This document shows positions 2,706-48,264 of a stretch of DNA of 64,000 nucleotides, piece after piece. The stretch's first letter is position 1; each line of letters begins with the position of its first letter. The notes under the pieces are model-generated. The model saw nothing but the letters and a program-made list of their open reading frames with translations. It was not told the origin of the DNA and did not search any database. The position numbers and the translations under genes were made by a program. Origin of the DNA: Rhodothermales bacterium (GTDB taxonomy: Bacteria > Bacteroidota > Rhodothermia > Rhodothermales > Bin80); contig OZ244823.1 in the NCBI GenBank assembly GCA_965220365.1, positions 1,300,361 through 1,364,360 on the forward strand. Reading direction: 5' to 3'.

Positions 2706-2893
2706 ACGCTTGAACAGTACAACGAGGGCTTTTCTTGAAAGAACTCTGGAAAAACTGATTTGGGTACCCCGTTAATAAAGTGCCTGGAACAAGTTATTAC
2801 CTAACTTGGAAAAAATTGTTACAGACAGGTAGAGAGAGCAACTTTGCTACGGGAGTTACCGTAAGGGCCTGTATGTAGTCATACTTCACGATC

Positions 2894-4236: not shown

Positions 4237-4323
4237 CAACCGATCTTCAGAGGTTTTGTACCTTTGTGGTGGCTCAGAATCGTGAGTATTCGTCTATTTG
4301 GAAGATCATTATTGAGGTAGAGC

Positions 4324-5298
4324 TTGAAGCTTGCAACTATTGACGTCGGGACAAACGCTGCAAAGCTTCTGATCTCTGAGTTGACTTCCAGTGGCAAATT
4401 GAAACCACTTGTGGAAGAGCGGCGAATGATTCGGCTTGGAGAAGGGGTAGATGCGCACGGCATTCTAAGAGAAGCGGCCGTCGAACGTCTTGTTCAGGCA
4501 TTACAGAGATTTCGTTCCACAGCGGGGCATTGGCAAGTGGAGAGGTGCGTTGTAGCAGGAACCAGTGCTTCTCGGGATACGGGCGATAAAATTGTTGCGA
4601 TCGTAAGAGAACGAACGGGATTGCACTATGAGATACTCTCGGGAGATCAGGAAGCAGATTTGAGCTATGAAGGGGCAGTTTCGGGGCTGCCCAATGTTGT
4701 GGATAGGATCGTCACATGTGATATAGGTGGTGGCTCGACAGAAATTGTTGAAGGAATGCCGGATGGTCACATCCTTCAGCGATTCAGTTTGGATATCGGC
4801 TCCGTACGTATTAAAGAACGATATTTTTCTTCGCAGCCGCCTGATCCCAAGGAACTGAAAGGGGCCACAGAATTCATTAAAAAATCGTTGGCTGAGCTAC
4901 CTTTTTCGGGAAGTCAAACAGGGCTCCTCGTCGGTGCATCAGATGTACATCGCCTTTTACTGGAGTTGCAACATGAATTAACTTCGGGAGAACTTCCGAT
5001 AAAATTTGACAGATCGAACCCGAATTGGAAACAGCTCCAGGTGAAAGAGGAGCACCCGGATAAACTCTCATGTATTCAGGTTCAGTGTTGGCTGGAGCTC
5101 TTGACTCCTATGACAACGTATGATGTTCTAGCTCTGAACCCGGAAAAGCTCCGAGGCAGGGCTGATGTATTCCCTGCTGCGATCTTGATTTTCCTGGAAG
5201 TGATGAACGCGCTGAGACAAGAATCAATCACAGTAAGTCCGTGGGGGCTATGTCATGGTATGGCATTGAGAATTTTCAAGACGGGTGTAGTAAAGTAG
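4324..5298 (+). CDS. Ppx/GppA-family phosphatase (exopolyphosphatase / guanosine pentaphosphate phosphohydrolase)
   Basis: 324 aa. The N-terminus KLATIDVGTNAAKLLISE is the ASKHA phosphate-1 motif. The internal DIGGGSTE motif is typical of Ppx/GppA. TTG start. Confidence 0.8.
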   Translation: MKLATIDVGTNAAKLLISELTSSGKLKPLVEERRMIRLGEGVDAHGILREAAVERLVQALQRFRSTAGHWQVERCVVAGTSASRDTGDKIVAIVRERTGLHYEILSGDQEADLSYEGAVSGLPNVVDRIVTCDIGGGSTEIVEGMPDGHILQRFSLDIGSVRIKERYFSSQPPDPKELKGATEFIKKSLAELPFSGSQTGLLVGASDVHRLLLELQHELTSGELPIKFDRSNPNWKQLQVKEEHPDKLSCIQVQCWLELLTPMTTYDVLALNPEKLRGRADVFPAAILIFLEVMNALRQESITVSPWGLCHGMALRIFKTGVVK

Positions 5299-5476
5299 CC
5301 GCAGACATGAAAGAGTGATCAAACTTGAAGCTGTGTTGACTACTACATGGGAAAATGCACATAGCGAATCAGGACAGTATGCCCGGTATCAACAGGAATC
5401 GGATTTCCCTATTTTTGTGGAGAGAAGACGTTAGAAATGCAAATCAACTCATCGAATCATTGATGTATGGAGAGGA

Positions 5477-6556
5477 ATGAATCGAAAAGCGATCAGACGT
5501 AAGGCTGTTTATCAGACCTTGAGCAGGATACGTGACCCGGAGCGGGACAGCGACATTACCCGGCTTGGCTCTGTAAAGGATGTCGTGATTGATGGCCGAT
5601 CCATCGCATTCAAGCTTTCTATTTCCCAGCCGGAGAATACATTTTCCAAAACGGTTGCCCAGCAGTGTAGAGAAGCGATTCGGTCTGAGTTTGGGGAGGA
5701 TGTGGAGGTTCAAATTGAGTTGACCTATTCCAAGGGGCGTGCAAAGCAGGTAAAGCTCGGAGCCCGGCATATGATCGCCATTGCTTCAGGTAAGGGGGGC
5801 GTTGGCAAAAGTACTGTAGCAACGAATATCGCCGTAGCTCTTGCAGCGGAAGGTTATCGGACGGGACTGGTAGACACAGATATCTACGGCCCAAGTGTTC
5901 CGGTGATGTTTGGGCTGGAGGGAGAAAAACCGCGTGTCAATGATCAACGAAAAATCGTTCCAATCATCAAACACGGTGTGCATGTACTTTCAATGGGGTT
6001 ATTAGTGGATGATTCTGAAGCCGTGATTTGGCGTGGCCCAATGGTCTCCGGGGCTGTTCGACAGTTTCTGAATGATGCGGAGTGGGGAGATCTTGATTTT
6101 CTTTTGCTGGATTTGCCGCCGGGTACGGGGGATATTCAGCTTACGATTGTGCAGACTGTTAAGTTAGCCGGTGCCGTCATTGTCTCAACGCCACAGAAAG
6201 TGGCTCTGACGGATGCAAGGAAAGGCTTGGTGATGTTTTCGAAGGTAAATGTGCCCGTTCTTGGGATTATTGAGAACATGGCTTGGTTTACCCCAGCAGA
6301 TCTTCCCGAGCGCAAGTATTTTCTTTTTGGAGATGGTGGAGCTGACCGTCTTGCAACCGAAACCGGTATTCCACTGCTCGGTAAGATTCCTTTGGAAGAA
6401 CCTCTGCGGGTTTCAGGTGACGAGGGACGCCCGATTGTGTTATCAGCGCCTTCTAGTGGAGCTGCCCAGGCGTTCCGATCTATTGCAGATAGGATCGTCA
6501 CGTCATTGGCAGAGAGGGAAACTTCTCCTGTATCTCCACTTATTGAGTATCAATAG
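5477..6556 (+). CDS. apbC: Mrp/ApbC/NBP35-family Fe-S cluster carrier ATPase
   Basis: 359 aa. It has an N-terminal DUF59-like segment, the deviant Walker A IASGKGGVGKSTVATNIA, and the ENM...CxxC-region layout of the family. Confidence 0.9.
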   Translation: MNRKAIRRKAVYQTLSRIRDPERDSDITRLGSVKDVVIDGRSIAFKLSISQPENTFSKTVAQQCREAIRSEFGEDVEVQIELTYSKGRAKQVKLGARHMIAIASGKGGVGKSTVATNIAVALAAEGYRTGLVDTDIYGPSVPVMFGLEGEKPRVNDQRKIVPIIKHGVHVLSMGLLVDDSEAVIWRGPMVSGAVRQFLNDAEWGDLDFLLLDLPPGTGDIQLTIVQTVKLAGAVIVSTPQKVALTDARKGLVMFSKVNVPVLGIIENMAWFTPADLPERKYFLFGDGGADRLATETGIPLLGKIPLEEPLRVSGDEGRPIVLSAPSSGAAQAFRSIADRIVTSLAERETSPVSPLIEYQ

Positions 6557-6573
6557 ACTCAAAAATTCGTGCT

Positions 6574-6831
6574 GTGATGTCCAGATATGATCCAAATATG
6601 GATGCCGACCTTCGCCAGAAAATAGAAGATGGACTTGATTCAATTCGTCCTTATCTTGTTGCTGATGGTGGGGAGGTTCAGCTACACAGAATCACAGATG
6701 ACATGGTTGTGGAACTTAAGTTACTCGGTGCCTGTGGTACATGTCCGATGAGTACCATGACATTACGTGCGGGGATTGAGCAGGCATTGCGGCATGCTGT
6801 GCCACAAATTTCACGAGTGGATGCAGTGTAA
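6574..6831 (+). CDS. NifU C-terminal-domain (Nfu-like) Fe-S scaffold protein
   Basis: 85 aa with the LLGACGTCPMSTMTL CxxC motif of the NifU/Nfu C-terminal domain. It lies adjacent to apbC. Confidence 0.85.
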   Translation: MMSRYDPNMDADLRQKIEDGLDSIRPYLVADGGEVQLHRITDDMVVELKLLGACGTCPMSTMTLRAGIEQALRHAVPQISRVDAV

Positions 6832-6876
6832 GGTGCTAACATAGTAGGACATCAGAAAACACAAACTCAGAATAAG

Positions 6877-7650
6877 ATGAATCAAAAAGGACTTTTGGCA
6901 GGCATTCTAGCCCTGACCGTTTTTATTGGACTGCAGCCTTTGTCTGCTTCCGCACAGATGGAATTTCAATATCAGAGGGGTAGCCTGTTGAATCCATTCT
7001 CAGGACGTCATCATGCAACGAACATCCTAACGTTCCAGCACGCAGGTAGCTGGAAGCTGGGGCGGACTTTTTTCTTCATTGACTTTTTGGATGATGACTC
7101 GGATGATGGATTTAACGATAGAGATTTTTATGGAGAGTGGTATCCATCGTTGAGTTTCAGCAAGCTCTTTGGTCAGGACATCAAGATAGGCCCCATCGTA
7201 GACGTTTCCGCGGTTGGTGGCTTGAACTTTGATGGAGATGTCAACGTTCTCAAGTTTTTGCCAGGTGTGCAGCTTTCGTGGAATATCCCTGGATTTATCT
7301 TCGTGAATACGGATTTCGCCGCAATCGTGGATCACAGTGACGGAACACAACATGATACTGGATTCATGTTTGATATCAGTTGGCTCAAGGTAATCAATAT
7401 TGGGAGCCAGTCTTTTTCATTCATGGGCCATGCCGAGTACATCAGTGCAGTAGAGCGCAAGGACAACGGGGGAACGATTGAAGCATGGATCTTGGCGCAG
7501 CCACAGCTGGTATGGGATGTGGGCAATCTATTCAAGTCACCAAACTGGCTTCATGTGGGAGTCGAGCTTCAGTATTGGTCGAACAAACTGGGAGTTGATG
7601 GGCAGGATGAATTTCGCCCCGAGCTTCTGGTTATCTGGCGGATGCAGTGA
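6877..7650 (+). CDS. Outer-membrane beta-barrel protein, Tsx/OmpK-like (possible nucleoside channel family)
   Basis: 257 aa with the signal peptide MNQKGLLAGILALTVFIGLQPLSASAQ. Alternating aromatic/hydrophilic beta-strand patterning and DFYGEWYP/..YWSNKLG motifs recall the Tsx family. No search was run. Confidence 0.5.
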   Translation: MNQKGLLAGILALTVFIGLQPLSASAQMEFQYQRGSLLNPFSGRHHATNILTFQHAGSWKLGRTFFFIDFLDDDSDDGFNDRDFYGEWYPSLSFSKLFGQDIKIGPIVDVSAVGGLNFDGDVNVLKFLPGVQLSWNIPGFIFVNTDFAAIVDHSDGTQHDTGFMFDISWLKVINIGSQSFSFMGHAEYISAVERKDNGGTIEAWILAQPQLVWDVGNLFKSPNWLHVGVELQYWSNKLGVDGQDEFRPELLVIWRMQ

Positions 7651-8120
7651 GCTTTCTCGTGGTGAAGGAGAGCTTCTGATTTCGTTGACCCCGATCGAAT
7701 AAATTCCGTTTGACGCTCTTGACCAACTCGGTGACGATTTCACCTGTTATTTGCTGATATCGGCTGATCTAAACGCGGAACGTGGACTCGAATCTTGGGA
7801 GTTCCTTGATGTCGATGCACTGTCATTATGGTGATGTTCTAAAGTGTCATTTTCCTCCGGCTCATGTTTTTGAGCATGTCCATGCGTGACCTGTAGGGAT
7901 CATTGATTTTGACATGGCACAGCGATACAGTCCCAGATTTTGTTGCAGTGCTGGGCTGTTTTGGCTATCATATGTGGAGGTGACGCCCACCCGGATGATT
8001 CGTAGCTGGATTGGGTTGCGTATCTGGTTTGGGAGATGATGTTTTTGTGGCTGTATCCGTGATTGTGGTCTACGATGCCCTAAAGTCGGTGGGCATGCAC
8101 GCTTACTGATGTAGTACTCT

Positions 8121-8859
8121 GGCTCCTCCCCTTTATCAGTCGGTATAATCATCTCCGAACGTCTTCGGGATATAGATCAAGTCCTCCCAGATGGAAGTAA
8201 ATAGCGTTGGCAAATCGTTTTTTTTTGTTGCGAAAGCCTCGACTGCGCATTTTGACGGTTTTGATTCGACTGTTGATGCCTTCCGCGGGCCCATTGCTCA
8301 CCTTCAGGATGATCGTATCAATCGCGTTCCAACTCACACCCATCAGACGCGCCACCGCCAACACACTCGGCTCCTGCAGCCAATCCATTACCAGAGACTC
8401 AAACTCCACCGCAAACCGAGCGTTCGGTTCTGCCCATGGAATCGATACCGAACACATTCCATGCTCAGGAAACTCTACACATGGAAGACCTGCAACCACC
8501 ATCGTGCGGTACGCACACATATCCAGATGGCCCATTGCCGACGACGCTTATCATAATCTGGACATATGGCATCATACTCAGGGCACCTCAATGGGTGGAC
8601 TGCTTTGCAGGTTACCTGGATCTGCACTTCCCGCGCCTTATGCGCAATTGTCACATCGGGAACCTCCCACGGAGAATGAATGCCGAACAGGCGGCTGATA
8701 CCCTTCGGTCGTACTGACAGATAGTTGATGAGAATGTAGTGGAAAATAAAATCGTGATGAAATACCCGGAACAAGCAAGAAATGGGCGTGAATTCCACTC
8801 ACATTCCTTACATGTACAACAGGCCCCAACATTCTACCCATGCAAATGGGGGAAGAGCC
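8121..8859 (-). mobile_element. ISL3-family element, internally deleted and frameshifted derivative (non-autonomous)
   Basis: The terminal sequences are GGCTCCTCCCCTTTATCAGTCGG (8121-8143) and, inverted, ...ggggaagagcc (ends 8859), matching the GGCTCTTC-type ISL3 inverted repeats. The element encloses transposase remnants. Confidence 0.7.
8149..8798 (-). pseudogene. ISL3 transposase pseudogene: N-terminal zinc-finger/HTH region joined to the extreme C-terminus, with the DDE core missing and one frameshift
   Basis: ORF 8475..8798 gives ...CPEYDAICPDYDKRRRQW. ORF 8149..8535 gives GHLDMCAYRT..VEFPEHG..VPWAEPNARF..SWNAIDTII then jumps straight to SNGPAEGINSRIKTVKMRSRGFRN...GGLDLYP, the ISL3 C-terminal signature. 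Confidence 0.7.
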
Positions 8860-10585: not shown

Positions 10586-12706
10586 ACGCGAATTCGCCAT
10601 TTCTCTCCGACCCTACTGAATTTCCCGGGTTAATTTTCGATTTTTTAGCCCCAACCCCCCTGATTTCGGCCTAAAACCGCCTGATTCAGGGCAAAATACG
10701 TGTTTTTGGACGATGTTTTGTCTAATCCCCCCAATGTAGTGGATTTTTTGCGAAACATTGCCGCAGCCCACGCATTCAACCCTCCCAAACAACCCCGCTC
10801 CTGATGTATATCCGTACCAAACCCCGGACCCTTAAATCCGGCAAAAAAGCCTGTACCTATTCCCTGGTTGAATCCCATCGTGTCCAGGGGAGTCCCAAGC
10901 AGCGGACGATTCTCAATCTCGGCAAAGACTTTCCCCTCCCCAAAGAACAATGGTCAGCGCTGATGCAATTTGTCATGGACGAATTACGCGGATACGCACG
11001 CCTGCCCATGGAGGATGAAGCCCTGCTCCAGACCGGTCAGGATATCCTTCGCCGACTCAAGAACAAGGGCTACAATATCCACGCTCCGCGCGATGATCGG
11101 GATGCAATCCTGACTCATGAGATCCATCATACCGACACGCGAACCATTGGCGGCGAGCGCGTGGCGCTGCGTGCCCTGCGCACGCTGGGGTTTCCACAGA
11201 TTCTGCAATCCTTGAAGTTCAACCAGGATCAGATCAACTGGGCCCTCGCGCTGGTGGTGGGGCGGATGCTGTCTCCGGGCAGTGAGCGGCAAACCTATGA
11301 ATGGATGTGTGAACGCTCCAGTATCATCGAATTACTCCACGGCAAGCTTCCAGGAGATCGCACCCTTTATCGCATCGCAGCCCGCCTTTACAAGCATCGA
11401 AAAACGGTGATGGACGAACTCTTTGGTAACACCAAGGCATTGTTCGGCTTTACCGAATCCATTGCCTTCTTTGATTTGACGAACACCTACTATACGGGGC
11501 GCAAAAAGGGAGCTCTCTTACGCCATGGTCGCAGCAAGGAAAAGCGTAGAGATTGTCCGCTGGTCACCTTAGCCTTGACGATGGATGCTTCGGGGTTTCC
11601 GCGTACAGCGGAAATTCTGCCCGGCAATGCCAGTGAACCCAAGACCTTGCGCACGGCGATTGAACAGCTCAATGGCAGCACCCCCACGGTCATTATGGAC
11701 GCAGGGATCGCTACCGAAGCAAATTTGACGTATTTGAAGGATGCGGGATTGAACTGGATCTGTGTGCAGCGCACAAAGACGCCCCCGGTGCCGGACCGGG
11801 AACCGGATCAGGTTTTTCAGACGACCAGCGAGATGCAGGTACGTGCATGGGAACTTGAGCAGGAAGATGGAGAACGACGCGTGTATCTGCACAGCGCGGC
11901 CCGGCAGGCACTCGGCGATCAGATCATGACCACGAAGCGTACCAGATTTGAGGCCGCCATCACGCACTTAAACGAAGGACTGACCGTGCCCGGGCGTCCG
12001 AAGAACCATGAAGTGATCCAACGGAAGGTTGGTCGACTCCTTGAGAAATACAAGCAGGTTGGATATCAGTATGAGGTCAAGGTGATTCCGAAAAAAGACA
12101 GCGCACATGCCGAAAAGATTCTTCTTACCCGTCGGTCTGCCTATGATGCCTGTACGGAAGCGTTTGGAGGCTATGTGCTGCGTACCAGTCACACAGCATG
12201 GCCCTGTGAGGAGCTTGCACGGACCTATTGGCAATTGGGCGAGATTGAACGCACGTTCCGAACGATGAAATCCGATCTCGGATTCCGTCCAATCTATCAT
12301 AGCCAGGATGAGCAGATTGAAGCACATCTGTTCCTGTCCATTCTGGCCTTTCATGCCGTTCATCTCATTCGAAGCAAATTGGGCGCGAAACAGATCCACA
12401 AAAGCTGGGGAACGCTCAAAACCAAACTCAATGAGCACAGGCGCGTGACAACCGTACTGCCACAGAATAAAACCCACTGTATCCTGCTCAAACAAGATCA
12501 GGACCTCAAACCATTCCAGCGCCAAATCTTCCAGATCATGGAACTCCCGCTCGGAAATAATACGCGGCGAATCAAGGCCAAACGCAAAAAAAAAGAAGAC
12601 GCCAAAGTGTAGAATAAGCTCCCAAATTCAACCCCTCTAACAACCCCTGAAAAATGGGGGACAGAAAATCTCAACAAAAAATTCCACTACAATGGCGAAC
12701 TTGCGG
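10586..12706 (+). mobile_element. IS1634-like (IS4 superfamily) insertion sequence, apparently intact
   Basis: The left end is acgcgaattcgccatttctctcc. An imperfect inverted copy, aatggcgaacttgcg, lies near 12691-12706. A single 602-aa transposase ORF is enclosed. The boundaries are approximate. Confidence 0.7.
10804..12612 (+). CDS. IS1634/IS4-superfamily DDE transposase
   Basis: 602 aa. The N-terminus MYIRTKPRTLKSG..YSLVESHRVQGSPKQRTILNLG is typical of IS1634-type transposases. The candidate DDE blocks are FFDLTNTYYTG, VIMDAGIATEANL and YWQLGEIERTFRTMKSDLGFRPIYH. Confidence 0.85.
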   Translation: MYIRTKPRTLKSGKKACTYSLVESHRVQGSPKQRTILNLGKDFPLPKEQWSALMQFVMDELRGYARLPMEDEALLQTGQDILRRLKNKGYNIHAPRDDRDAILTHEIHHTDTRTIGGERVALRALRTLGFPQILQSLKFNQDQINWALALVVGRMLSPGSERQTYEWMCERSSIIELLHGKLPGDRTLYRIAARLYKHRKTVMDELFGNTKALFGFTESIAFFDLTNTYYTGRKKGALLRHGRSKEKRRDCPLVTLALTMDASGFPRTAEILPGNASEPKTLRTAIEQLNGSTPTVIMDAGIATEANLTYLKDAGLNWICVQRTKTPPVPDREPDQVFQTTSEMQVRAWELEQEDGERRVYLHSAARQALGDQIMTTKRTRFEAAITHLNEGLTVPGRPKNHEVIQRKVGRLLEKYKQVGYQYEVKVIPKKDSAHAEKILLTRRSAYDACTEAFGGYVLRTSHTAWPCEELARTYWQLGEIERTFRTMKSDLGFRPIYHSQDEQIEAHLFLSILAFHAVHLIRSKLGAKQIHKSWGTLKTKLNEHRRVTTVLPQNKTHCILLKQDQDLKPFQRQIFQIMELPLGNNTRRIKAKRKKKEDAKV

Positions 12707-12835
12707 ATAGAACCGTTAGTGTAGGAACAGGTCCAGCACAAAAGATTTTCTCAGACATAACCATAACAAGTTTCTTTCCCAAAAAATTTTCTGCTTTCCG
12801 CTTACGGATGAGTGCAGGCAGGTGGCATTTCTTTT

Positions 12836-12859
12836 GGGAATTATAGTGAATAGTTGAAA
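12836..12859. repeat. Left terminal inverted repeat of the IS1595-family transposon
   Basis: Exact reverse complement of 15566-15589. Confidence 0.9.
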
Positions 12860-12917
12860 CAACTTCGATTCTTCTACGTATAAGATAATAGACAAAACAA
12901 ATTTGAGGTTGTATATT

Positions 12918-13862
12918 ATGGCTAGCCCAGGACGTTCCTACCGAGAAGGAATCACGTTTTTAGAATTGGCTGAAAGATTCCCCGATGAAGCATCTGCTCA
13001 AAAATGGTTCGAGAAAGTGCATTGGCTAGACGGTAATTTGTGCTGCCTGCGCTGTGGCAGTGAGAACGTATACCGGTGCAAACACAAGACCATGCCATTC
13101 CGGTGCCGGGATTGCAAGAAGTATTTCAGCGTCAAGACCGGAACGGCGATGGAATCTTCTAATCTGCCATTAAGGAAATGGGTATGGGCTCTCTACTTGG
13201 AGAACACAAACCTGAAAGGGGTATCCTCTATGAAGCTGCATAGAGATATTGGTGTTGCACAGTCCAATACGTGGCATATGCTACACCGTATCCGCGAAGG
13301 CTTGTTACCGGAAATGATTAATGAGTTTGAAGGGCCGGTAGAGGTAGACGAAGCATACATAGGTGGCAAGGAAGCCAACAAGCATGAGGACAAGAAACTC
13401 AATGCTGGGCGGGGTACTGTTGGCAAGAGTGCTGTATTGGGCGTGAAAGATCGTAAGACCAATCAGATTACCGCGAAGGTGATTGAGGATACCACCAAGC
13501 CAACGGTGCAGGAGTTCATCAATGATAACCGCTCCAAAGATGCTTCAGTATTCACCGATGAGCATAGCAGTTATGAAGGCTTGACCAACCATGCATCTGT
13601 AAATCACAGCCAGAAACAGTGGGCAGTATCTACTGTGCTGGGAGAATACGCTCACACAAATGGCATCGAATCATTCTGGGCGGTTCTGAAGCGTGCCTAT
13701 CATGGCACCTACCATCACCTAAGCAAGAAACACCTTAACCGCTACGTAACTCAGTTTGCCGGCAAGCACAATCTACGAGAACTGGATACCATTGACCAAA
13801 TGGCAACGGTTGTCAGGGGCATGGCCGGGAAGCGGTTGAAGTATAAAGACCTAGTCGCATAA
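12918..13862 (+). CDS. IS1595-family (ISXO2-like) DDE transposase
   Basis: The ATG at 12918 (MASPGRSYREG...) is preferred over the TTG at 12903. It has the N-terminal zinc ribbon CCLRCGSENVYRCKHKTMPFRCRDCKKYF and the motifs VEVDEAYIGGK, FTDEHSSY and HTNGIESFWAVLKR, which are characteristic of the family. Confidence 0.9.
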   Translation: MASPGRSYREGITFLELAERFPDEASAQKWFEKVHWLDGNLCCLRCGSENVYRCKHKTMPFRCRDCKKYFSVKTGTAMESSNLPLRKWVWALYLENTNLKGVSSMKLHRDIGVAQSNTWHMLHRIREGLLPEMINEFEGPVEVDEAYIGGKEANKHEDKKLNAGRGTVGKSAVLGVKDRKTNQITAKVIEDTTKPTVQEFINDNRSKDASVFTDEHSSYEGLTNHASVNHSQKQWAVSTVLGEYAHTNGIESFWAVLKRAYHGTYHHLSKKHLNRYVTQFAGKHNLRELDTIDQMATVVRGMAGKRLKYKDLVA

Positions 13863-13871
13863 TGACGCCCG

Positions 13872-13883
13872 CCCCCCCCCCCC
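13872..13883. repeat. Poly-C homopolymer (12 C) between the transposase stop and the methyltransferase body
   Basis: Counted directly in gcccgCCCCCCCCCCCCgaaaaat. It lies inside the conserved-looking upstream extension of the methyltransferase reading frame. Confidence 0.9.
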
Positions 13884-13950
13884 GAAAAATCGTGCCAACT
13901 GGAAAAATCGGACGCTATTCATCCATGACAACCTTCCAATTCTCCGTGGC

Positions 13951-15366
13951 ATGAACAGTGACTCTGTTGATCTGATTGCAACGGATCCCCCGTTCAACAA
14001 AAAGAGGCAGTTCAATGCTCCATTAAAATCCAAAGCATCTGGGCAGAAGTTTGAAGATCGTTGGAGATGGGATGAAGTAACCAAAGAATGGCATGATTTG
14101 ATCGCGACCGACTATCCAGCAATCAAAGAGTTAATTGAGGCTGCGGTGGTGATTGAAGGCGGAAGTATTGACAGGCAGACAGGGAAAGTAGACACGGGGA
14201 AAACAAAAAACAGTGTTGCTGCTTTTCTTGTGTGGATGGCACCGAGATTGATTGAAATGAAACGGGTATTAAAACTCACTGGGTCAATCTATCTGCATTG
14301 TGATCCAACTGCAAGCCATTATCTAAAGCTGTTGATGGATGCAGTATTTGGCAAAAATAATTTCAGGAATGAAATTGTGTGGCGCAGAACAACGGGTAAC
14401 AAAAGTTCAACGAAGGGGCTATCTAAGAATTCAGATATTATTTTGCGATACTCCAAGTCAGGTAAGTTTATCTGGAACCAAGACGCAGTGACAGTACCAT
14501 ATGATCTGAACAACTTGGACAAAAAAAAAACGCTAAAGCAGTACTCCAAAACTGATTCAGATGGCAGGCGGTATGCCTTGACTGATCTCACCGATCCTAC
14601 ACAAAATCCAGAATCAAATTGCACGTATGAAGTAATGGGCGTAACTCGGACATGGAGGTGGATTAAAGAACGGATGGATCAAGAAATTGCAAATGGTCGG
14701 GTGGTGCAGACTAAACGAGGGAATGTGCCAAGATTCAAAAGATACTTGGATGAGCAAGAAGGAAAGAAAATGGATTCCATTTGGACGGACATACCAAGAG
14801 TTGAGGGAAAGTCGAAAGAAAGCACAGGTTGGAAAACCCAAAAGCCAATAGCCCTCTATCAGAGGATCATACAGGCATCAAGCAACAAAGAAGATTTGGT
14901 ATTGGATCCTTTTGCTGGATGTGCAACAACATGTGTAGCTGCGGAATCTCTGCAACGTCGCTGGATCGGCATTGATATTGATGAAGTAGCTGCTACCGTT
15001 ACGCGAGACCAGTTGTTTAAATATGCAGGACTGAATCAGTCGCTCGACGATACGTTTGTGCAGGTGAAGACCCAACCCCCGAAGCGTACGGATTCCCCCT
15101 CTATGAGTGACGCCCGTATGCGATTGGTACTCTGGAAAAAACAGGGTCACAGGTGTGCCAATCCTTACTGCTCTTCTAAAAGTGACCTTCGAAAAGAAGA
15201 TTTACATTTAGATCATGTCATCCCTAAATCCCGAGGTGGTCCAGATGATATATCCAACCGGAATGCACTCTGCGGAAACTGCAATTTGCGCAAAGGCAAG
15301 AAGGCTTGGGGAATGTTTCTTGACGAAGAGCGAAGCAGACAGCCACATCCATCTTTACCCTGCTGA
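13951..15366 (+). CDS. Beta-class (Mod-like, PF01555-type) N6-adenine/N4-cytosine DNA methyltransferase fused to a C-terminal HNH nuclease domain. The N-terminus is probably truncated in the present frame.
   Basis: Motif IV is SVDLIATDPPFN at the N-terminus. The block YLHCDPTASHYLKLLMDAVFGKNNFRNEIVW follows. Motif I is LVLDPFAGCATTCVAAESLQRRWIGIDID near residue 320. The C-terminal HNH is HLDHVIPKSRGGPDDISNRNALCGNCNLRKGKK. The frame stays open upstream to 13855 and encodes NRTLFIHDNLPILRG, a typical methylase N-terminus. Confidence 0.85.
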   Translation: MNSDSVDLIATDPPFNKKRQFNAPLKSKASGQKFEDRWRWDEVTKEWHDLIATDYPAIKELIEAAVVIEGGSIDRQTGKVDTGKTKNSVAAFLVWMAPRLIEMKRVLKLTGSIYLHCDPTASHYLKLLMDAVFGKNNFRNEIVWRRTTGNKSSTKGLSKNSDIILRYSKSGKFIWNQDAVTVPYDLNNLDKKKTLKQYSKTDSDGRRYALTDLTDPTQNPESNCTYEVMGVTRTWRWIKERMDQEIANGRVVQTKRGNVPRFKRYLDEQEGKKMDSIWTDIPRVEGKSKESTGWKTQKPIALYQRIIQASSNKEDLVLDPFAGCATTCVAAESLQRRWIGIDIDEVAATVTRDQLFKYAGLNQSLDDTFVQVKTQPPKRTDSPSMSDARMRLVLWKKQGHRCANPYCSSKSDLRKEDLHLDHVIPKSRGGPDDISNRNALCGNCNLRKGKKAWGMFLDEERSRQPHPSLPC

Positions 15367-15373
15367 TAATCTC

Positions 15374-15556
15374 ATGAAAAACATGCCACCCGAGAAACAA
15401 TCCAAGTCGAATCCGAAAGACCGTTTAGACGCAATGCTAGACGAGCCATGCCGGAACGAGCGTTACGGGGGAATGACGATGCGTGAGATGGTACGGAAAG
15501 TGGTGCTGCGCAGGGATGACCAGGTAGAGAAACGGCAGAAAACCGACCTGAAATGA
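15374..15556 (+). CDS. Small hypothetical protein (60 aa) inside the transposon
   Basis: The ATG at 15374 lies just after the methylase stop (MKNMPPEKQSKSNPKDRLDAMLDEP...). It is the downstream part of ORF 15215..15556. No recognisable motif. Confidence 0.3.
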   Translation: MKNMPPEKQSKSNPKDRLDAMLDEPCRNERYGGMTMREMVRKVVLRRDDQVEKRQKTDLK

Positions 15557-15565
15557 GCGGAGCCT

Positions 15566-15589
15566 TTTCAACTATTCACTATAATTCCC
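15566..15589. repeat. Right terminal inverted repeat of the IS1595-family transposon
   Basis: Exact reverse complement of 12836-12859. Confidence 0.9.
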
Positions 15590-15759
15590 TTTCTTTTTAC
15601 TGTATCTTTGAGGAAAATGAGACGGGACGAAAAGAGAACGCTTAAAATTCGTCTGGTTACTGCGGAGAGTATGTTTTTAAAATTACGGGTGTATCCGTGA
15701 ATGCTTCGGTTCCTGATGACTGTCCGTCACTCTTCCTCTAAATTTCCCTTGTTTAGGTT

Positions 15760-15770: not shown

Positions 15771-18700
15771 GTGATGTTTAGGTTACTACTTTGTGTCCTC
15801 CCCTTAATCGTCCTTGACCTAGAAGATGCCAAACACCATCGAATTCAAGCGGCGCTCCATATTGATCAAGTTGCCCCGTCAGAAACTTCCCGTAAGAATG
15901 AGATACAGAGGGGAAAATATGAGGATTTTGCGGAGTTGAGTTTGATGGAAGCTAGCCGGAAGTTCGCGGGTGTATATGTCGAGCAGGCCGGGATAGCCCA
16001 TCGTGTGGCAGCAGATGACAAAGGGCAGGTTGTAAGCCCTAATATGGGGTGGACATCTGGATTTGAGTTGACCACCGCCAGGGTTGGAGAGCTTGATGAT
16101 CATATATCTGGATTCGGCATAGATACAAATGTTTTTGATACGGGCCGGGGAATATCGGTGAGGATAGGGCCGGATGACTCATTTACAAAGGTGGGAATGT
16201 TTTCCCTGATGGGTAATGCATCAGACAATAGTGGATTTACGATGGCTACAGAGCCCCAGAGTGATGTAGGAGACAAGGATGCAAAGGTATTGGATAGGCA
16301 TGGTGTGAGAGCGATCCCAGATGTTATTATAGAGGGCGGATTAACTATCCAAGCCACAATCCATTCATCTTCAATTGCTATGATGGAAGATTACAACATA
16401 CCTAGATGGGAACCCCTTCAATCAGATATAAATGACCATTTTTGGAATTTTCAATTTCCAAAGAGTGCGAAAATTTCCAGTACCCGAATCGGGATGGATA
16501 ATGGGGATACTGATCATGGGACGGAAAGATTATTTCTCCCCGGCATTACACATTTAAGTTCTGCAGTTGAGGAATTGAGAAAATTTGGGTGTCGACCTTC
16601 AAACTGCTCACTCCCAATCACAATCCACACGAAGAGGCCAACACTTAAAATCAGCGATATCCCCAACAAGATCAACTCCAAGACCATGTTCACGGCCATC
16701 TTCACCTTCAGTGAGGATGTAGCAGGCTTTGATATTATAGATGTGACGGTAACTGGTGGTTCTAAGGGGAATCTTTCGGGAGGCGGGACGACCTATAAGC
16801 TGCCGATCGCACCGGATGGTGATGCTGATGTAACGGTGGGAGTAAGGGCGAATTCAGTGACAAATGCCATTGGCAGTACTGGGCCAATCTCGGCGATTTC
16901 GGCCACGGCTATTTGGGATGCAACACCCCTAGACGTGACCATATCGGTGCCCAATGCGATCAATCCCTCGGCCGAGTTCACAACTACCTTTACCTTCGGT
17001 GAGACGGTGACAGGCTTTGAGACCGAGGATATAAGTGTAGCCGGTGACATGAAGAGAGTACTGAGTAGAAGCAACTCCACCTATACGATGCCGATTACAC
17101 CGACCGCATCCGAGAAGGTGGTAGTGAAAGTCGCACGCAATTCAGAAATAGATGATGTTGATAATACGGGTCCGCCGCACGAGATTGGGATAGAGGCGAT
17201 GATATGGAATACGCCTACGGTGGATTTAAAGTCACCTTCAGACCTGATTGTAGAGGGGGAGGATGTCACGATGGCAGCCATACTTTCCTCTACACTGTCA
17301 GGCGATGTGACGATTCCGGCAACGATAGATTATAAATGTAGTGATGTATGTATAGAAGATAGGCACAGCGGCGCATCTGTTTCAACGGCAATAACGATTT
17401 CTGCAGGTGATCTAGGGGGGACGAGTACTATTTCAACGACTGCAGATTCGAATAATGGTGATGAAAGGCCTAGGGTGGTGATGGATACGGGTAACCTGTC
17501 ATCCGGCGTTCGTGCAGATGTACCGAATCAGGTTGCGGTGACAGCATATGAGCCGAAGAAAGTGGAATTTGATATATCTCCAGAGACGGTGTACGAAGGC
17601 GAAGATGTCACCGTGACGGTAAGGTTTTTGAATTCACAGACTTTATCAAGTGATGTGACGATCCCTTTTCTAATGTATGATCAGAATTGGAATTCCGGCA
17701 AAAACCCCGTTGTTCGTCCACAGGCTCCAAAAAAACTTGAGGTTGAGATCAAGGCGGGGACTGTGGAGGCATCTGGTACACTTGAGACGATCATAGATGG
17801 CAGCGGGAGAGATGAAGAAGTCAGCGTGGTGTTTGGAACATTGCCGCCGGAGGTAAAGCGTGTGACGGCTGGTCGCCGATTAATCATTAAGGGGAGTAAG
17901 CGGACTGTAACATTGTCTGCGAGCCCGAATCCGGTTTTCGAGGGTTCACCAGGTGGGGTAGCGGTGACCGCCGAACTTTCTTATGCACATTCACAGGAGG
18001 TCCGTATTCCGTTGACGTATCGTGACAAGACGGCACCTGGAACATCTTTGACAGCAGAGCCAACGGATTATGACGATGTTGATTTCATCACGATCTCAGC
18101 AGATAGTACGACAGGGACCGAAACAATAGCCATTCCTGATGAGGCTCCTATACCCAAGGATAGTGAGGATGAAACATTCATGGTCGTAATTGATGAGTCC
18201 ACTCTCCAGTCAGACTTGATCGCAGGGCTTCCAAAAGATGTGGAGATTACCATCAGGGACAATGATAAGGTGGAGGTAAATTTAGAGTTGCTTTCACCGG
18301 GAATTGTGCTTGAAGGCGAAAACCCTGCAGCAAGAATAGAGGTGAAAATCTCAGAGATACTGCCGAATACTGTTGCAATTCCATTGTTAATGACTCAGGA
18401 CCTTCCGACATCTGGACAATCAGCAGTGTTATGCCCCGCCGTAATCAAAGCGGGAGAAAAAAGCACGGAATATGAGATTTTACGTGCAGTGGATGATGAT
18501 GATAAGGATGAGCAGTATACGGTCACGTTGGATCCGTCCCCGCCTCTAGGCACTCCTTCTTCTTGCTCCGCCCATGTCAATTCCTGGCCAGTTGAGGTAC
18601 TTGAGGGATCGGATAACTCTGTCACGTTTACGATTCAGGATAGGCCTGTGGTGAAATTAACTGCTTCGCCAACAACGCAAAATGAGGGGGATTCGGTGGA

Positions 18701-21700
18701 GGTCAAACTGGAGCTTTCGTATGCATTGGAGAAAGATGTGAGTATCGATGTCAATGCGGCACCAAGGTCCGACCCACTTTTTGCTTATACGTCGTGGGAT
18801 GATTTTGAGACGCTGTGGGTTGGAGGGATTCTGATTCCCAAAGGAACAACAATCGCTAGAGATACGGTCGTCATCAAGACAGATTTTGAGGCCGAACCAG
18901 ATGAGGTCTTTAATGTAGGGTATCCGAAGTCACGATTGCCGGATGCGGTGCGACATGCTGAACAACAAACAAGAATCTCGCTTCCTGGCATTCCCTGTGA
19001 CGACGTTACTTGTGCCATTACGATCAAGGATGTTGAGCCAGAGCAGATTGTAACCTTATCGGCATCCCCAAACCCGGTTTTTGAGGGAAATTCAACAACG
19101 CTGACGATGACGCTGACTAAGCCGTTGCCAAAAAGCGAGGTGAGAGAGTTTCAGATCCTTAGCAACGACCCTGATTCCGATGCCAATGAACACGACATTG
19201 CTTTGCCTCTGAGGCATGCGGGACCTTGGAATGTTAGGTGGTTTAGGTTTGGCGAGGACAAACTTAAGTCCGAGGTCGTAATTGAAATAAAAGATGATGG
19301 CATAGACGACGAAGGGGACGAGAAGTTAATCTGGCAAATTGTAGGTTTTACGAATACCGAAGTGAAGCATGCGTGTTCGCATGTGTATTCTAAAAAGTCC
19401 CTCTGCAAGAGTGCCATTGTAATCAAAGATCCGGTCAAGATCACAGTGACTCCGTCAGCGGCGATCACGATGGCGGAGGGAGGTACTGCGACCTTTGGGG
19501 TATCGCTAAGTTCAGCGCCGTCTTCAGATGTGACCGTGGCGATGAGTGGGCTTGTAGGCACGGATCTGACAGCTCCGCGGGCGGGTGGATCGAGCTTAAT
19601 ATTTACGCCTACGAACTACAGCACACCGCAGGAGATAACGCTGGTTGCGGCGAATGATGATGATGACGTTAAGGATGATGACGTTACCCTGACCTTAACG
19701 GGTTCGGATGCGGAATATGACGGGGTAACTACGGATGTGACGGTGACGATTGAAGATAACGATGTCGGAGCGATCATAGCGAATCCATCAGATGTTAAGA
19801 TAACGGAAGGTAGTACTGCGACCTTTGATGTGTCGCTAAGTGCTAGACCATCAACAAACGTGACAGTGGAACTGAGTGGTCATGCAGGTACGGATCTGGG
19901 TACTACTCCACCGGACCCGCAGACGATAATATTTACGCCTCATAATTACACTATAGCGCAGTCAGTGACCTTGACGGCAGACGAGGACACTGATTTTTTA
20001 GATCGATTTGAGTGGTTATCCTTAGATGCCTCTAATGCGGAATACGATGGTGTACAGACATATGTAGGGATACTCATTGATGATAACGATGCTTTAAAAA
20101 TCACGATTGACGAGGGAAGTTCGGTAGAGGCCCTTGTTCTATCCCTGCCTACTAAACCGACATCAGATGTGACGGCAACGATTACCGGATATATAGGCAC
20201 AGCTCTGGGTACTATCCCACCGGACCCGCAGACGATAATATTTACGCCTCATAATTACACTATAGCGCAGTCGGTGACCTTGACCGCAGATGAGGATGAT
20301 GATATACAGAATGATGTAGTGATGTTGGTTGCGGAGTATTCTGGCGGCGACTATGGCGGGCAGGACGTGAATATCGAGGTAACGATTAGGGATAATGATG
20401 CGGTGCCGCCGATCGTAGATATTGACATGCCGGCCCGGATCAACAGTGCGGCGCCGCTGACGGCAAGCTTTACGTTTGATAAATCGGTGACTGGGTTTGT
20501 GTTGGCGGATGATGTAACGGTCACCGGTGGCACGGCGGGGGCGCTCAGCGGCAGCGGCTCCAGCTACAGTCTGCCAATCACGCCGTCGGGGGGAAGTGAT
20601 GTGGTGGTGACGGTCGCGGCGAACAGCGTCACGGACGACCTTGGCAATTCCGGTCCGGCGACGGCAGTGTCGAAAACGGCGACCTGGGATGCGGCGGTTC
20701 CGACGCTGGCGATCGGTGGGGTTCCGGGGAAAATCAACAGTACGACGGCGTTCACGGCGAGCTTTACCTTCAGTGAGGATGTGACGGGGTTTGTGGCGGC
20801 GGATGTGGGTGTGACGGGCGGAGCGGCGAGCGGCTTCACGGGCAGTGGGGCGAGCTACAGCGCGACGATCACGCCGACGGGGAATGCGGATGTGGTGGTG
20901 AGTGTGGATGCGAACAGTGCGACGGACGGGGTGAACCTGGCGCCGGCGAGCGAGGTGTCGAAAACGGCTACCTGGGATGTGGCGGCGCCAAGGGTAACGA
21001 TGGTCGTGCCGCCCTGGATTAACAGCGCGGGCAAATTCACGGTAAATTTTACGTTTAATAAAATAGTGACGGGCTTTGAGGCCGCGGATATAAGGGTTAT
21101 CGGTGGCACGGCGGGGGCGCTGATCGGCAGCGGGGCGATCTACAGAATGCAGATCACGACGCCGGGCGGGAGTGATGTGTTGGTAACGGTCAAGGCCAAC
21201 AGCGTCACAGACAACATTGGCAATTCCGGTCCGGCGACGGAAGTAACGGCAATAGTCATGTGGGATGCGGCGCCGCCGACCGTAGATATTGACATGCCGA
21301 CCCGGATTAACAGCACGACCGCATTCACGGCAAACTTCATGTTCGATAGAACAGTGAGGGGCTTTGTGGCGAGGGATGTGAGTGTGAGTGGCGGCACGAG
21401 GGGGGCGCTCAGCGGCAGCGGCTCCAGATACAGAATGTCGGTCACGCCGTCAGGGGGAAGTAATGTAGTAGTGACCGTGGGTGCGAACCGTGTCTTCGAC
21501 AATGATTTCCGTAATGGTCCGGCGACGGCAGTGTCGAAAACGGCGGTCTGGGATGCGGCGGTTCCGACCGTAGATATTGCCATGCCGACCCGGATTAACA
21601 GCACGGCGCCGCTGACGGCAAGCTTCACGTTTGATAAAGCGGTAACCGGGTTTGTGTTGGCGGATGATGTGACGGTCAGTGGTGGCACGGCGGGCGCACT

Positions 21701-24700
21701 GACCGGCAGCGGTTCCAGCTACAGTCTGCCGATCACGCCGACAGGTGGGAGTAATGTAGTAGTGACGGTCGCGTCGAACAGCGTCACGGACGACCTTGGC
21801 AATTCCGGTCCGGTGACAGATATTTCCGAGACAGCCACCTGGGATGCGGCGCCGCCAAGGGTAAGGCTCATCATTCCAGACTGGATTAACAACACGGACG
21901 CATTCACGGTATACTTCATGTTTAATAAAATGGTAACCGGCTTTGCGGCGGCGGATATAACGGTGACCGGTGGCACGGCGGGGGCACTGACGGGCAGCGG
22001 AGCGAGCTACACGCTGCCGATCACGCCGGCGGGAGGTGAAGATGTGGTGGTAACGGTCGCGGCCAACAGCGTCACGGACAATATCGGCAATTCCGGTCCG
22101 TCTCCGGCGGTTACGAAAACGGCCACCTGGGATGCGGCGCCGCCGACGGTAGATATTTCCATGCCGGCCCGGATTAACTCTGCGGCGGCGTTCACGGCGA
22201 GCTTTATGTTCGATAGAACAGTGGGGGGATTTGAGGCCGCGGATATAACGGTGACCGGTGGCACGGCGGGCGCATTGAGCGGCAGCGGGGCGAGCTACAC
22301 GCTGCCGATCACGCCGGCGGGGGGAAGTGATGTGGTGGTGACGGTGGGTGCGAACCGTGTTTTCGACTATAGTTTCCGTCTCGGTCCGTCCACGGCAGTA
22401 ACGGCGACGGCCATCTGGGATGCGTCAGCACCGACCGTAGATATTTCTGTGCCGGCCCGGATTAACTCTGCGGTGGCCTTCACGGCGACCTTTACGTTTG
22501 ACAAAGCGGTGACGGGGTTTGAGGCCGCGGATATAACGGTGACCGGCGGCACGGCGGGGGCACTGAGCGGCAGCGGGGCGAGCTACACGCTGCCGATCAC
22601 ACCGGCGGGGGGAAGTGATGTAGTGGTAACGGTCGCGGCCAACAGCGTGACCGACCAGGTGGGCAATCTCGGTCCGGTGACGGCAGTAACGGCAACGGCG
22701 ACCTGGGACGCAGCGGCGCCGACGCTGGCGATCACGGGAGTTCCTTCAAAGATCAACAGTACGACGGCGTTCACGGCGACCTTTACGTTTGACAAAGCGG
22801 TGACGGGGTTTGTGTTGGCGGATGATGTGACGGTGACCGGCGGCACGGCGGGGGCACTGAGCGGCAGCGGGGCGAGCTACACGCTACCGATCACGCCGTC
22901 GGGGGGTGCAGATGTGGTGGTAACGGTCGCGGCGAACAGCGTGACCGACCAGGTGGGCAATCTCGGTCCGTCCACGGCAGTAACGGCAACGGCGGTGTGG
23001 GACGCATCGCCGCCGACGGTAGATATTTCCATGCCGGCCCGGATCAACAGTACGGCGCCGCTGACGGCGACCTTTACGTTTGACAAAGCGGTGACGGGGT
23101 TTGAGGCCGCGGATATAACGGTGACCGGTGGCACGGCGGGCGCACTGACGGGCAGCGGGGCGAGCTACACGCTACCGATCACGCCGTCGGGGGGTGCAGA
23201 TGTGGTGGTAACGGTGAGTGCGAACAGCGTGACCGACCAGGTGGGCAATCTCGGTCCGTCCACGGCAGTAACGGCAACGGCGGTGTGGGACGCATCGCCG
23301 CCGACGGTAGATATTTCCATGCCGGCCCGGATCAACAGTACGGCGCCGCTGACGGCGACCTTTACGTTTGACAAAGCGGTGACGGGGTTTGAGGCCGCGG
23401 ATATAACGGTGACCGGTGGCACGGCGGGCGCACTGACGGGCAGCGGAGCGAGCTACACGCTGCCGATCACACCGGCGGGGGGAAGTGATGTAGTGGTAAC
23501 GGTCGCGGCCAACAGCGTGACCGACCAGGTGGGCAATCTCGGTCCGGTGACGGCAGTAACGGCAACGGCGACCTGGGACGCATTGGCGCCGACGCTGGCG
23601 ATCACGGGAGTTCCTTCAAAGATCAACAGTACGGCGCCGCTGACGGCGACCTTTACGTTTGACAAAGCGGTGACGGGGTTTGAGGCCGCGGATATAACGG
23701 TGACCGGTGGCACGGCGGGCGCACTGACGGGCAGCGGGGCGAGCTACACGCTACCGATCACGCCGTCGGGGGGTGCAGATGTGGTGGTAACGGTGAGTGC
23801 GAACAGCGTCACGGACGATCTTGGCAATTCCGGTCCGGTGACGGCAGTAACGGCAACGGCGGTGTGGGACGCATCGCCGCCGACGGTAGATATTTCCATG
23901 CCGGCCCGGATCAACAGTACGGCGCCGCTGACGGCGACCTTTACGTTTGACAAAGCGGTGACGGGGTTTGAGGCCGCGGATATAACGGTGACCGGTGGCA
24001 CGGCGGGCGCACTGACGGGCAGCGGAGCGAGCTACACGCTGCCGATCACACCGGCGGGGGGAAGTGATGTAGTGGTAACGGTCGCGGCCAACAGCGTGAC
24101 CGACCAGGTGGGCAATCTCGGTCCGGTGACGGCAGTAACGGCAACGGCGACCTGGGACGCATTGGCGCCGACGCTGGCGATCACGGGAGTTCCTTCAAAG
24201 ATCAACAGTACGGCGCCGCTGACGGCGACCTTTACGTTTGACAAAGCGGTGACGGGGTTTGAGGCCGCGGATATAACGGTGACCGGTGGCACGGCGGGCG
24301 CACTGACGGGCAGCGGGGCGAGCTACACGCTACCGATCACGCCGTCGGGGGGTGCAGATGTGGTGGTAACGGTGAGTGCGAACAGCGTCACGGACGATCT
24401 TGGCAATTCCGGTCCGGTGACGGCAGTAACGGCAACGGCGGTGTGGGACGCATCGCCGCCGACGGTAGATATTTCCATGCCGGCCCGGATCAACAGTACG
24501 GCGCCGCTGACGGCGACCTTTACGTTTGACAAAGCGGTGACGGGGTTTGAGGCCGCGGATATAACGGTGACCGGTGGCACGGCGGGCGCACTGACGGGCA
24601 GCGGAGCGAGCTACACGCTGCCGATCACACCGGCGGGGGGAAGTGATGTAGTGGTAACGGTCGCGGCCAACAGCGTGACCGACCAGGTGGGCAATCTCGG

Positions 24701-34462: not shown

Positions 34463-34702
34463 CCGAGTCCTACCACAATCCTTGAACGCGCCATTGGATT
34501 CCATTGATTGGAGAGGCCGAGGTAGGTCAAATGGTCGTGGAAACCAGAACCAAATTGCTCCATCGAGCCCTTGAAAAGGGAAAACTTCTTGATGTCCAGG
34601 CACACCCGTGCGTTCGGCAGCGAAAGTGCATCACCAAAAAAAAAAATCGCCGAGCATCCGTACCGCAAATTTTCCAAAATTACGTAGTTTATAGCCACGC
34701 AC

Positions 34703-34925
34703 TACATAAGCAGAGGGGATGTTTGGGAGGGTTGAATGCGCGAGTTGGGGATAGATTTCGCAAAAAATCCACTACATTGGGGGGATTTGACAAAACATCG
34801 CCCCAAAGCACGTATTTTGCCCTGAATCAGGCGGCTTTAGGCCAAAATCGGGGGGATTTGGGCCTGAAAATCGAAAATGAATCCGGGAAATTCATTGGGG
34901 GAGGAGAGAAATGGCGAATTCGCGT
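34703..34925 (-). mobile_element. Decayed 5' end (left IR plus 5' UTR) of a second IS1634-like copy, inverted relative to the element at 10586
   Basis: The reverse complement of 10586-10806 aligns by eye with 34703-34925 at roughly 80 percent identity, including ggagagaaatggcgaattcgcgt. The transposase ATG is kept (34707) but codon 2 is TAG. Weak similarity may continue down to about 34470. Confidence 0.7.
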
Positions 34926-42896: not shown

Positions 42897-42909
42897 TCCT
42901 GGCTCCAAA

Positions 42910-45282: not shown

Positions 45283-45403
45283 CTATGTCAAAATACAAAG
45301 TGCTGCTTTCTGAGATAATATTGGCGGTTAGTTGCTTCAGGCAAGAAAAAGGCTCCTTTACCTTCTTTGGCGGACTCGGACCCAATTTAGCAGAAAATCA
45401 AAG

Positions 45404-47564: not shown

Positions 47565-47636
47565 AATTAGACCAAGCGGTTGTTGGGTAATGGTCTGGAC
47601 GTTTTACTCATTATTGCATATTAACGTGAGGCAAGC

Positions 47637-48179: not shown

Positions 48180-48264
48180 TTTCTTGTCAAAAAATACGAT
48201 GGGGCCGGTTTGGGTGTTGCGCCACATCTCTGCCTTAAATTGTTGGAGTTACAGTATAGTGACG

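Follow-up and report, generated by a model that had tools for sequence, protein, structure and literature searches.

Within a 64,000-nucleotide (nt) stretch of a Rhodothermales bacterium genome (assembly GCA_965220365.1, contig OZ244823.1, positions 1,300,361 to 1,364,360 of the forward strand; hereafter the window), we analyzed a 2,754-bp element at 12836-15589 that contains a transposase gene, a gene for a DNA methylase fused to an HNH nuclease (methylase-HNH), and a 60-codon open reading frame (ORF). Near its 5′ end the methylase-HNH gene carries a run of 12 C residues that sets its reading frame, and to judge from this gene and its relatives we put the probability that the tract is a real slippage switch of the cargo gene at roughly 0.58.

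The element is delimited on the left by a terminal inverted repeat, GGGAATTATAGTGAATAGTTGAAA at 12836-12859 (+), which is complementary at 24 out of 24 positions to the right terminal repeat at 15566-15589 (-), a perfect match. This 24-bp sequence has just two matches in the window (0 expected by chance), and directly outside the two repeats stand identical copies of the 8-mer TTTCTTTT (12828-12835 and 15590-15597), forming a target-site duplication. The transposase gene at 12903-13862 (+), 319 codons long when counted from a TTG at 12903 and with an ATG at 12918, belongs to the IS1595 family of DDE transposases (Pfam PF12762 DDE_Tnp_IS1595, 1e-36; NCBIfam NF033547 transpos_IS1595, 1e-47); the zinc ribbon of this family (PF12760, Zn_ribbon_IS1595) is matched at 4e-4, below the gathering score. 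An IS1595 DDE transposase with a zinc ribbon, terminal inverted repeats, an 8-bp duplication, and passenger genes inside the ends are the features of a transporter insertion sequence (tIS), and by its sequence 12836-15589 is an intact tIS of the IS1595 family. The perfect inverted repeats and the intact target duplication indicate recent transposition. A preliminary description of this DNA had already placed the methylase gene on a transposon, whose limits are now given by the 24-bp repeats and the 8-bp duplication.

The methylase-HNH gene and its start

As annotated, the methylase-HNH gene is a 471-codon ORF at 13951-15366 (+) encoding a beta-class N6/N4 DNA methyltransferase (motifs DPPF ... 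DPFAGCAT) with a C-terminal HNH nuclease (Pfam N6_N4_Mtase, 1e-46; HNH, 8e-12). Its 471-amino acid (aa) product, read from the ATG at 13951, is present unchanged in the public protein collection (P0121). Alignments of homologues show no variation in DPPF and DPFAGCAT, as expected of a Mod-type enzyme, and the closest solved relatives by family profile are Type III Mod subunits (H. pylori 6k0w, EcoP15I 4zcf, Mbo45V), followed by beta-class Type II methylases, in line with the mod-type assignment that the gene had been given from its letters. The C terminus matches the HNH domains of McrA and Cas9, likewise by family profile. An AlphaFold model has a mean predicted local distance difference test score (pLDDT) of 87 and a predicted template modeling score of 0.86, and fold comparison agrees with the profile search in placing Type III Mod nearest. 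No fusion of a methylase to HNH, solved or described, turned up in the profile search, the fold comparison, or the literature, and no named defense system was matched: PADLOC, with the labels MTase_II / MTase_III, and NCBIfam give generic methylase and HNH matches only.

At the junction with the transposase gene, the stop TAA (13860-13862) shares a base with an ATG (13862-13864), giving TAATG at 13860-13864 (+). A homopolymer of exactly 12 C follows at 13872-13883 (+), in what would be codons 4-8 of the full-length gene. With 12 C, translation from the ATG at 13862 yields only a 30-codon ORF (13862-13954, +; peptide MTPAPPPRKIVPTGKIGRYSSMTTFQFSVA), whose TGA at 13952-13954 overlaps the annotated methylase ATG at 13951 (ATGA). 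When the run is edited in silico to 13 or 10 C, the ATG at 13862 falls in the methylase frame, and the product begins MTPAPPP(P)KNRANWKNRTLFIHDNLPILRGMNSDS... The methylase frame itself is open in the 5′ direction back to a TAG at 13852, reading SHNDARPPPPKNRANWKNRTLFIHDNLPILRG-MNSDSVDLIATDPPFN, and contains no ATG, GTG, or TTG before 13951. The tract thus sits between the sole start codon and the conserved core, in frame with 13 or 10 C and out by one nucleotide with 12. The overlaps, the tract, the leader, and the restoration of frame agree at every coordinate with the preliminary description.

A run of this length exceeds what chance would provide, since from base composition only 0.012 C or G runs of ≥12 nt are expected per 64 kb (∼0.65 per 3.58-Mb genome) and C or G runs elsewhere in the window reach 6 nt at most. 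It also passes the length at which a G:C run becomes hypermutable (about 8-9 nt or more); for contingency loci, the hypermutability of G:C runs of ≥9 nt is established.

Several lines of evidence converge on the segment between the tract and the annotated start (KNRANWKNRTLFIHDNLPILRG, 13885-13950, +), which lies in the methylase frame and has no in-frame start at 12 C. Most of the best 120 homologues begin M-(3-10 residues)-N(W)xNRTLF(V/I)xDNxxxLRGMNS...DPPF, and the 22 codons 5′ of the annotated start show conservation in >100 homologues. Compared with the closest relative, locus L001 (91% nucleotide identity), the 15 codons NRTLFIHDNLPILRG have six synonymous changes and one conservative nonsynonymous change, and over the whole gene the ratio of nonsynonymous to synonymous rates (dN/dS) is 0.14. 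The segment aligns with the stretch that precedes DPPY in the Type III Mod structure, and in the model it forms a strand (residues 10-13, TLFI) and a helix (16-22, NLPILRG) with block-mean pLDDT of 89-97. Homologues, substitution pattern, Mod alignment, and model therefore agree with the earlier suggestion that the upstream peptide is the conserved N terminus of this methylase family. To judge from these comparisons, the 22 upstream codons are real coding sequence under purifying selection, and the real start of methylase-HNH is the ATG at 13862, abutting the transposase stop. Because these codons are coding, the deposited 471-aa product is N-terminally truncated; the annotation is corrected in that this product begins 30 codons too late and is without part of the catalytic fold. 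According to the model, a protein started at Met 13951 would lose two core secondary-structure elements, the first strand and the helix, and would probably be inactive.

An A10 run at 14521-14530 (+), encoding Asp-Lys-Lys-Lys-Thr in frame, had been proposed as a second slippage-prone site within the gene. It is not conserved: the run is A7 in L001, with one Lys codon fewer, and is interrupted by GAA/GAG or absent in all other relatives. We therefore reject it as a second switch and regard it as a lineage-specific, in-frame gain of a Lys codon.

Tract length and frame in related loci

For every close homologue that could be located, we read the upstream DNA and computed the reading frame. Homologous tracts of 9-15 nt occupy the matching position in related loci (numbered L001 and upward), and both frames are found. 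Out of frame, besides the window allele (C12), are L001/L002 (C10; two assemblies, 95% protein identity), where a 1-nt deletion in an A run downstream is present as well, L096 (C15), L097 (C11), and the outer of two nested copies in L099 (C10). In frame are L003 (C14), L099/L100/L101 (C11), and L098, in which a G12 run encoding poly-Gly (4026-4037) takes the place of poly-C after a shared CATATA; two further loci, L004 (C9; a plasmid-like context with no IS1595 element) and L102 (C13), are in frame via an alternative upstream ATG. The 10 independent loci with long pure G:C tracts (lengths 9-15) thus divide evenly, five in frame and five out. Where the tract is short or interrupted, it is out of frame in 0 out of 3 cases: L005 (C5TC5), L103-105 (C6; one element in several samples), and L106 (CCCTCCCTCCCT) all keep the frame. 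The assemblies L001/L002 and L099/L100/L101 each derive apparently from one sample, and their tract lengths agree.

Loci without a tract provide a control. An in-frame start upstream of the conserved strand is present in 85 out of 89 homologous genes of this kind and absent in four, compared with frame loss in five out of 10 long pure tracts (P = 4e-4, Fisher's exact test), which ties loss of the N-terminal frame to long pure tracts. No long pure tract was found among 80 relatives from a metagenome scan (mostly 37%-47% identical, one 61%), the set that served as this control. In a more distant relative, L006 (4010-4021; a Rhodothermaceae metagenome-assembled genome, 38% identity), we observe C4TC6 at the N terminus, with the nearest ATG out of frame in the opposite phase (-1 nt would be needed).

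Proteins of the tract-bearing loci are only 50%-95% identical, and their leaders differ (MTPA-, MATA-, MLHI-, MLAI-, MTIA-, and MNVYDNHIR-). The comparison suggests that what is kept is the homopolymer at the DNA level rather than poly-proline, which we reject as the selected feature on the basis of the G12/poly-Gly variant and the variable leaders. The preliminary description had pointed to homologous copies as a check on a switch; these differ in length, include both in-frame and out-of-frame alleles, and conserve the upstream peptide.

The same comparison bears on the possibility that the methylase-HNH gene is simply decaying cargo, killed by a fixed frameshift, with the tract incidental. 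The closest relatives are out of frame as well, and decay is visible in the L001 element, whose transposase gene has lost an internal piece and whose leader has a 1-nt deletion. However, 486 codons of the window gene are still open, its dN/dS is 0.14, and its catalytic motifs are invariant; the perfect 24/24 inverted repeats and intact target duplication speak of recent transposition; and a neutral, pure 12-nt run would not survive divergence of the family to 50% protein identity. We therefore consider decay very improbable.

The contingency-locus reading: a probable slippage switch and its alternatives

Taken together, a repeat in the 5′ coding region, length variation among loci, alleles in both frames, and interrupted, "locked" variants support the reading of the tract as a hypermutable contingency locus. 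For Type III methyltransferase genes, phase variation through poly-C or poly-G runs is well established (PMC3711429). The likeliest mechanism is a switch of this sort, in which slipped-strand mispairing at replication would change the length of the tract, and any change other than a multiple of 3 nt would switch the gene, the tract lying between the only usable start and the enzyme core. The 13- or 10-C state would give the full-length protein; the other state would give the 30-codon dead-end peptide or, at best, reinitiation at the ATG at 13951 and a protein without the first methylase strand and helix. The 12-C allele of the window would then be an off state. By extension, we infer that the tract changes length frequently within a population and is used as a stochastic on/off control of a costly or toxic cargo resembling a restriction-modification (RM) system.

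Several features of the data weigh against this interpretation. All alleles that are out of frame with the tract-proximal ATG (window, L001, L096, L097, L099, and L102) are exactly one C short (six out of six; P = 0.03, binomial test), the window's own sub-clade with its three members among them, and no 501-aa in-frame product of this sub-clade is present in the protein collection. Moreover, some of the out-of-frame loci are weak comparators: L096 and L097 come from 4x long-read contigs, the L001 element has a decayed transposase and the extra 1-nt deletion downstream of its tract, and the outer copy in L099 is already split by an insertion. Slippage that favors deletions in long runs, known from Campylobacter poly-G tracts, fits the one-C-short pattern as well.

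One account of this pattern is a homopolymer miscount, the main alternative named in the preliminary description, in which the true count is 13 C, leaving an intact gene whose run encodes a poly-proline linker without a switching role. The one-C-short pattern sharpens this alternative, a deficit of one C in every out-of-frame allele being a classic sign of compressed homopolymers; contig names (ctgN_4x_l etc.) and coverages suggest long-read metagenome assemblies for several loci and probably for the contig of the window; and outside the tract the gene is intact, with purifying selection acting on it. Set against this, assemblies that are apparently from short reads, judged by scaffold and contig names only, are out of frame too (C10 in L001 and in the independent Logan assembly L002, and C10 in the outer copy of L099). 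The assembly quality in the window is good: the A10 run stays in frame, as do an A9 run in the transposase gene of a neighboring IS1634-family insertion sequence, whose 602-aa product recurs in the same genome, and an uninterrupted ORF of 5,532 codons (16.6 kb). Even if the count were wrong, lengths of 9-15, the G12 version, and the interrupted, locked versions would still point to an unstable tract on which selection acts as DNA. On balance, a miscount appears unlikely.

Alternatively, the one-short allele could be the working state, with full-length enzyme made at a low ratio by -1 ribosomal frameshifting on C_CCC_CCC or by RNA-polymerase slippage that adds a C. All out-of-frame alleles would need exactly a -1 shift, including the three members of the window's closest sub-clade. 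The zero frame, GCC CCC CCC CCC CGA, contains the slippery heptamer C_CCC_CCC, and the -1 frame is the methylase frame. In E. coli, C_CCC_CCC is among the most efficient -1 motifs, and C_CC.C_CC.A and C_CC.C_CC.G shift at >0.1% without stimulators (PMC4066793). Stalling on poly-proline might aid the shift, and an RNA hairpin is predicted at 13891-13953 (stem CGUGCCA / UGGCAUG), 7 nt past the tract and enclosing the AUG at 13951 (z = -1.8 in the window and -2.5 in L001). This hairpin is missing from more distant loci and shows no covariation, its stem being identical in the window and L001, and the other one-short loci have z-scores from -1.2 to +1.9, on which we reject downstream RNA structure as a conserved stimulator of frameshifting. 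In addition, tract lengths of 9-15 nt are unlike the conserved length of a programmed site, and half of the long-tract loci, all short-tract relatives, and most tract-less relatives (85/89) are in frame without any shift. Because half of the loci are in frame, a programmed shift is unlikely as a general rule, and we consider recoding quite unlikely as an explanation of the window allele.

The two mechanisms might also be combined. A widespread IS1595 family in uncultured bacteria could carry a self-contained, single-chain, RM-like methylase-HNH gated by a G:C homopolymer (C or G, 9-15 nt) on whose nucleotides selection acts directly, and in which the prevailing one-short state is throttled rather than off, through -1 frameshifting on poly-C (self-stalled by poly-proline) or RNA-polymerase slippage; phase variation and recoding together would then dose a potentially toxic cargo during transposition, including transposition into rival copies (as in L099). 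We regard this scheme as decidedly improbable.

The element family and its relation to known systems

Homologues of methylase-HNH are numerous, with at least 8,000 scored candidates, all within E = 1e-3. The gene order, GGGAAYTATA termini, and 8-bp duplications recur in related elements (L005, L099/L100, L044, L018, L098, and L103-105), whose transposases are 52%-64% identical to that of the window. Duplications of 8 bp flank the L005 element (3851-6722; TTAAATAT), both of the nested elements in L099, and the element in L100, and L044 is a 2,587-bp contig that consists of exactly one element, with the GTG of its methylase gene overlapping the transposase stop (GTGA). The nested arrangement in L099 (GCA_022825385.1, JAJDWX010000012.1; 1284-6146) consists of an IS1595-methylase-HNH element at 2214-5483 inside the methylase-HNH gene of an outer, transposase-less relative. 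The inner element has the duplication AATCCAGA, shared by L099 and L100, and the outer one has inverted repeats at 1284 and 6146 and the duplication TATTTCAT. Removal in silico of the inner element and one copy of its duplication leaves an intact outer ORF. Another transposase-less copy, comprising an inverted repeat and methylase-HNH, is present in the same genome (L106). The L098 element is larger (6.9 kb, 1593-8496), has extra cargo, and adjoins genes of a cyclic oligonucleotide-based antiphage signaling system, CBASS (SMODS, E2-CBASS, and patatin).

The TAATG junction had been described as coupling the two genes. It is real in the window, and through it the cargo gene would be translationally coupled to the transposase gene, but only in the window's sub-clade (TAAATG at the equivalent place in L001); elsewhere in the family there are gaps of 31-96 nt or a GTGA overlap.

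The third gene of the element, at 15374-15556 (+), is a small conserved cargo ORF encoding 60 aa. It is 85% identical in L001 and 32% identical in L098, with the common motif RYGG.T.RE, and has no Pfam, NCBIfam, or PADLOC match. No Rfam RNA family was found in the whole window, and a promoter and terminator scan of the element gave no excess of sites over shuffled sequences. In plasmids we found no near-identical DNA, and a tblastn search there returned only methylases without HNH, at ≤45% identity; a scan of genome contigs yielded distant relatives only (25%-52% identity), and a scan of viral contigs one weak match.

Just upstream of the element, at 10731-12695, is a separate, multicopy insertion sequence of the IS1634 family with a 602-aa transposase and imperfect inverted repeats of 19 nt; the same genome encodes identical or near-identical transposases at other sites. 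L005 likewise has a DDE_Tnp_1 transposase gene, of the same Pfam family as the IS1634 one, 5′ of its IS1595 element. The transposon ends ∼180 bp upstream of the start of the 5,532-codon ORF (15771-32369), which encodes about 31 Big_12 Ig-like repeats together with Calx-beta domains and whose center (about 22-31 kb) has a G+C content of 64%, compared with ∼47% in the flanks. An A11 run at 34636-34646, second in length among the homopolymers of the window, lies inside an ORF at 34504-35145 that has no Pfam match, and farther downstream, at 42883-50595, are two TonB-dependent receptors with CarboxypepD_reg-like N-terminal domains (SusC-like). These receptors, together with one member of the 90%-identity cluster of the IS1634 transposase that NCBI assigns to a Bacteroidota metagenome-assembled genome, point to a host in the Bacteroidota.

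The putative device is found repeatedly in environmental and symbiont metagenomes, in a family of elements that has diverged widely; if the slippage switch is real, stochastic switching of modification and of restriction would itself be mobile, spreading horizontally as a 2.7-kb unit. The family is tractable, with well-defined ends, little cargo, and naturally occurring variants (on, off, locked, and G-tract), and it could serve to study the handling of a methylase-nuclease fusion by a selfish element. That out-of-frame alleles are always one short is, in turn, a concrete and inexpensive test case for telling apart sequencing artifact, slippage biased toward deletion, and recoding on poly-C.

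In having a slippery homopolymer that needs a -1 correction in a gene carried by an insertion sequence, the window element recalls the programmed -1 frameshifting or transcriptional slippage of the IS1 and IS3 families. There, however, the shift joins two ORFs of the transposase at a conserved site of fixed length, whereas in the window family the run belongs to a cargo gene, measures 9-15 nt, and leaves half of the loci in frame.

Mobile RM units offer a parallel to the element as a whole. Furuta, Abe & Kobayashi (2010) described RM or orphan-methylase genes lying between inverted repeats with 8-bp target duplications, and in one such unit, from Neisseria, the inverted repeats measure 26 bp and a transposase-like gene of COG3677 is present (PMC2853133). 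The window element has in common with these units a methylase gene flanked by inverted repeats and 8-bp duplications; in contrast, they carry conventional Type II/IIG genes, and a simple-repeat switch is not reported there (PMC2853133).

As to the vehicle, tIS are IS1595-family insertion sequences with passenger genes, exemplified in these accounts by ISNha5, tISCpe8, and MTnSag1 (Siguier et al. 2009, as related in PMC11891212 and PMC5704250). The window element resembles them in its zinc-ribbon DDE transposase, inverted repeats of ∼25 bp, 8-bp duplication, and passengers between the ends. The passengers described in these accounts are regulators, resistance genes, and mobilization genes, whereas that of the window is a methylase-HNH gene with a conserved hypermutable tract. 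Our literature search found no report of a methylase-HNH cargo, and none of an IS1595 element that carries a gene switched by a repeat.

The nearest precedent for the switch is the phase-variable Type III mod gene. Such genes, with poly-G/C or tetranucleotide repeats, are familiar from Helicobacter, Neisseria, Haemophilus, and Moraxella, and to our knowledge nearly all known phase-variable methyltransferases belong to Type I/III systems on the chromosomes of host-adapted pathogens. Like them, the window gene specifies a beta-class, Mod-like enzyme with a G:C homopolymer in its 5′ coding region whose length sets the frame. Unlike them, it has no res partner (no adjacent res gene or remnant is present in the 2.75-kb element, which holds only the transposase gene, methylase-HNH, and the 60-aa ORF), its HNH nuclease is fused in one chain, and it is cargo of a DDE transposon; the hosts of its family are uncultured environmental and symbiont bacteria rather than host-adapted pathogens, and its switch is a putative one. 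Of the phasevarion proposed in the preliminary description, the Mod-like enzyme and the frame-altering tract thus stand, but with a fused HNH nuclease in place of a res partner and a selfish element as carrier, a strict phasevarion, in which Mod controls a regulon, is not supported. The transposon-borne, putatively repeat-switched methylase-HNH is instead a variant that combines two known things: homopolymer-switched methyltransferase genes and the IS1595-family tIS.

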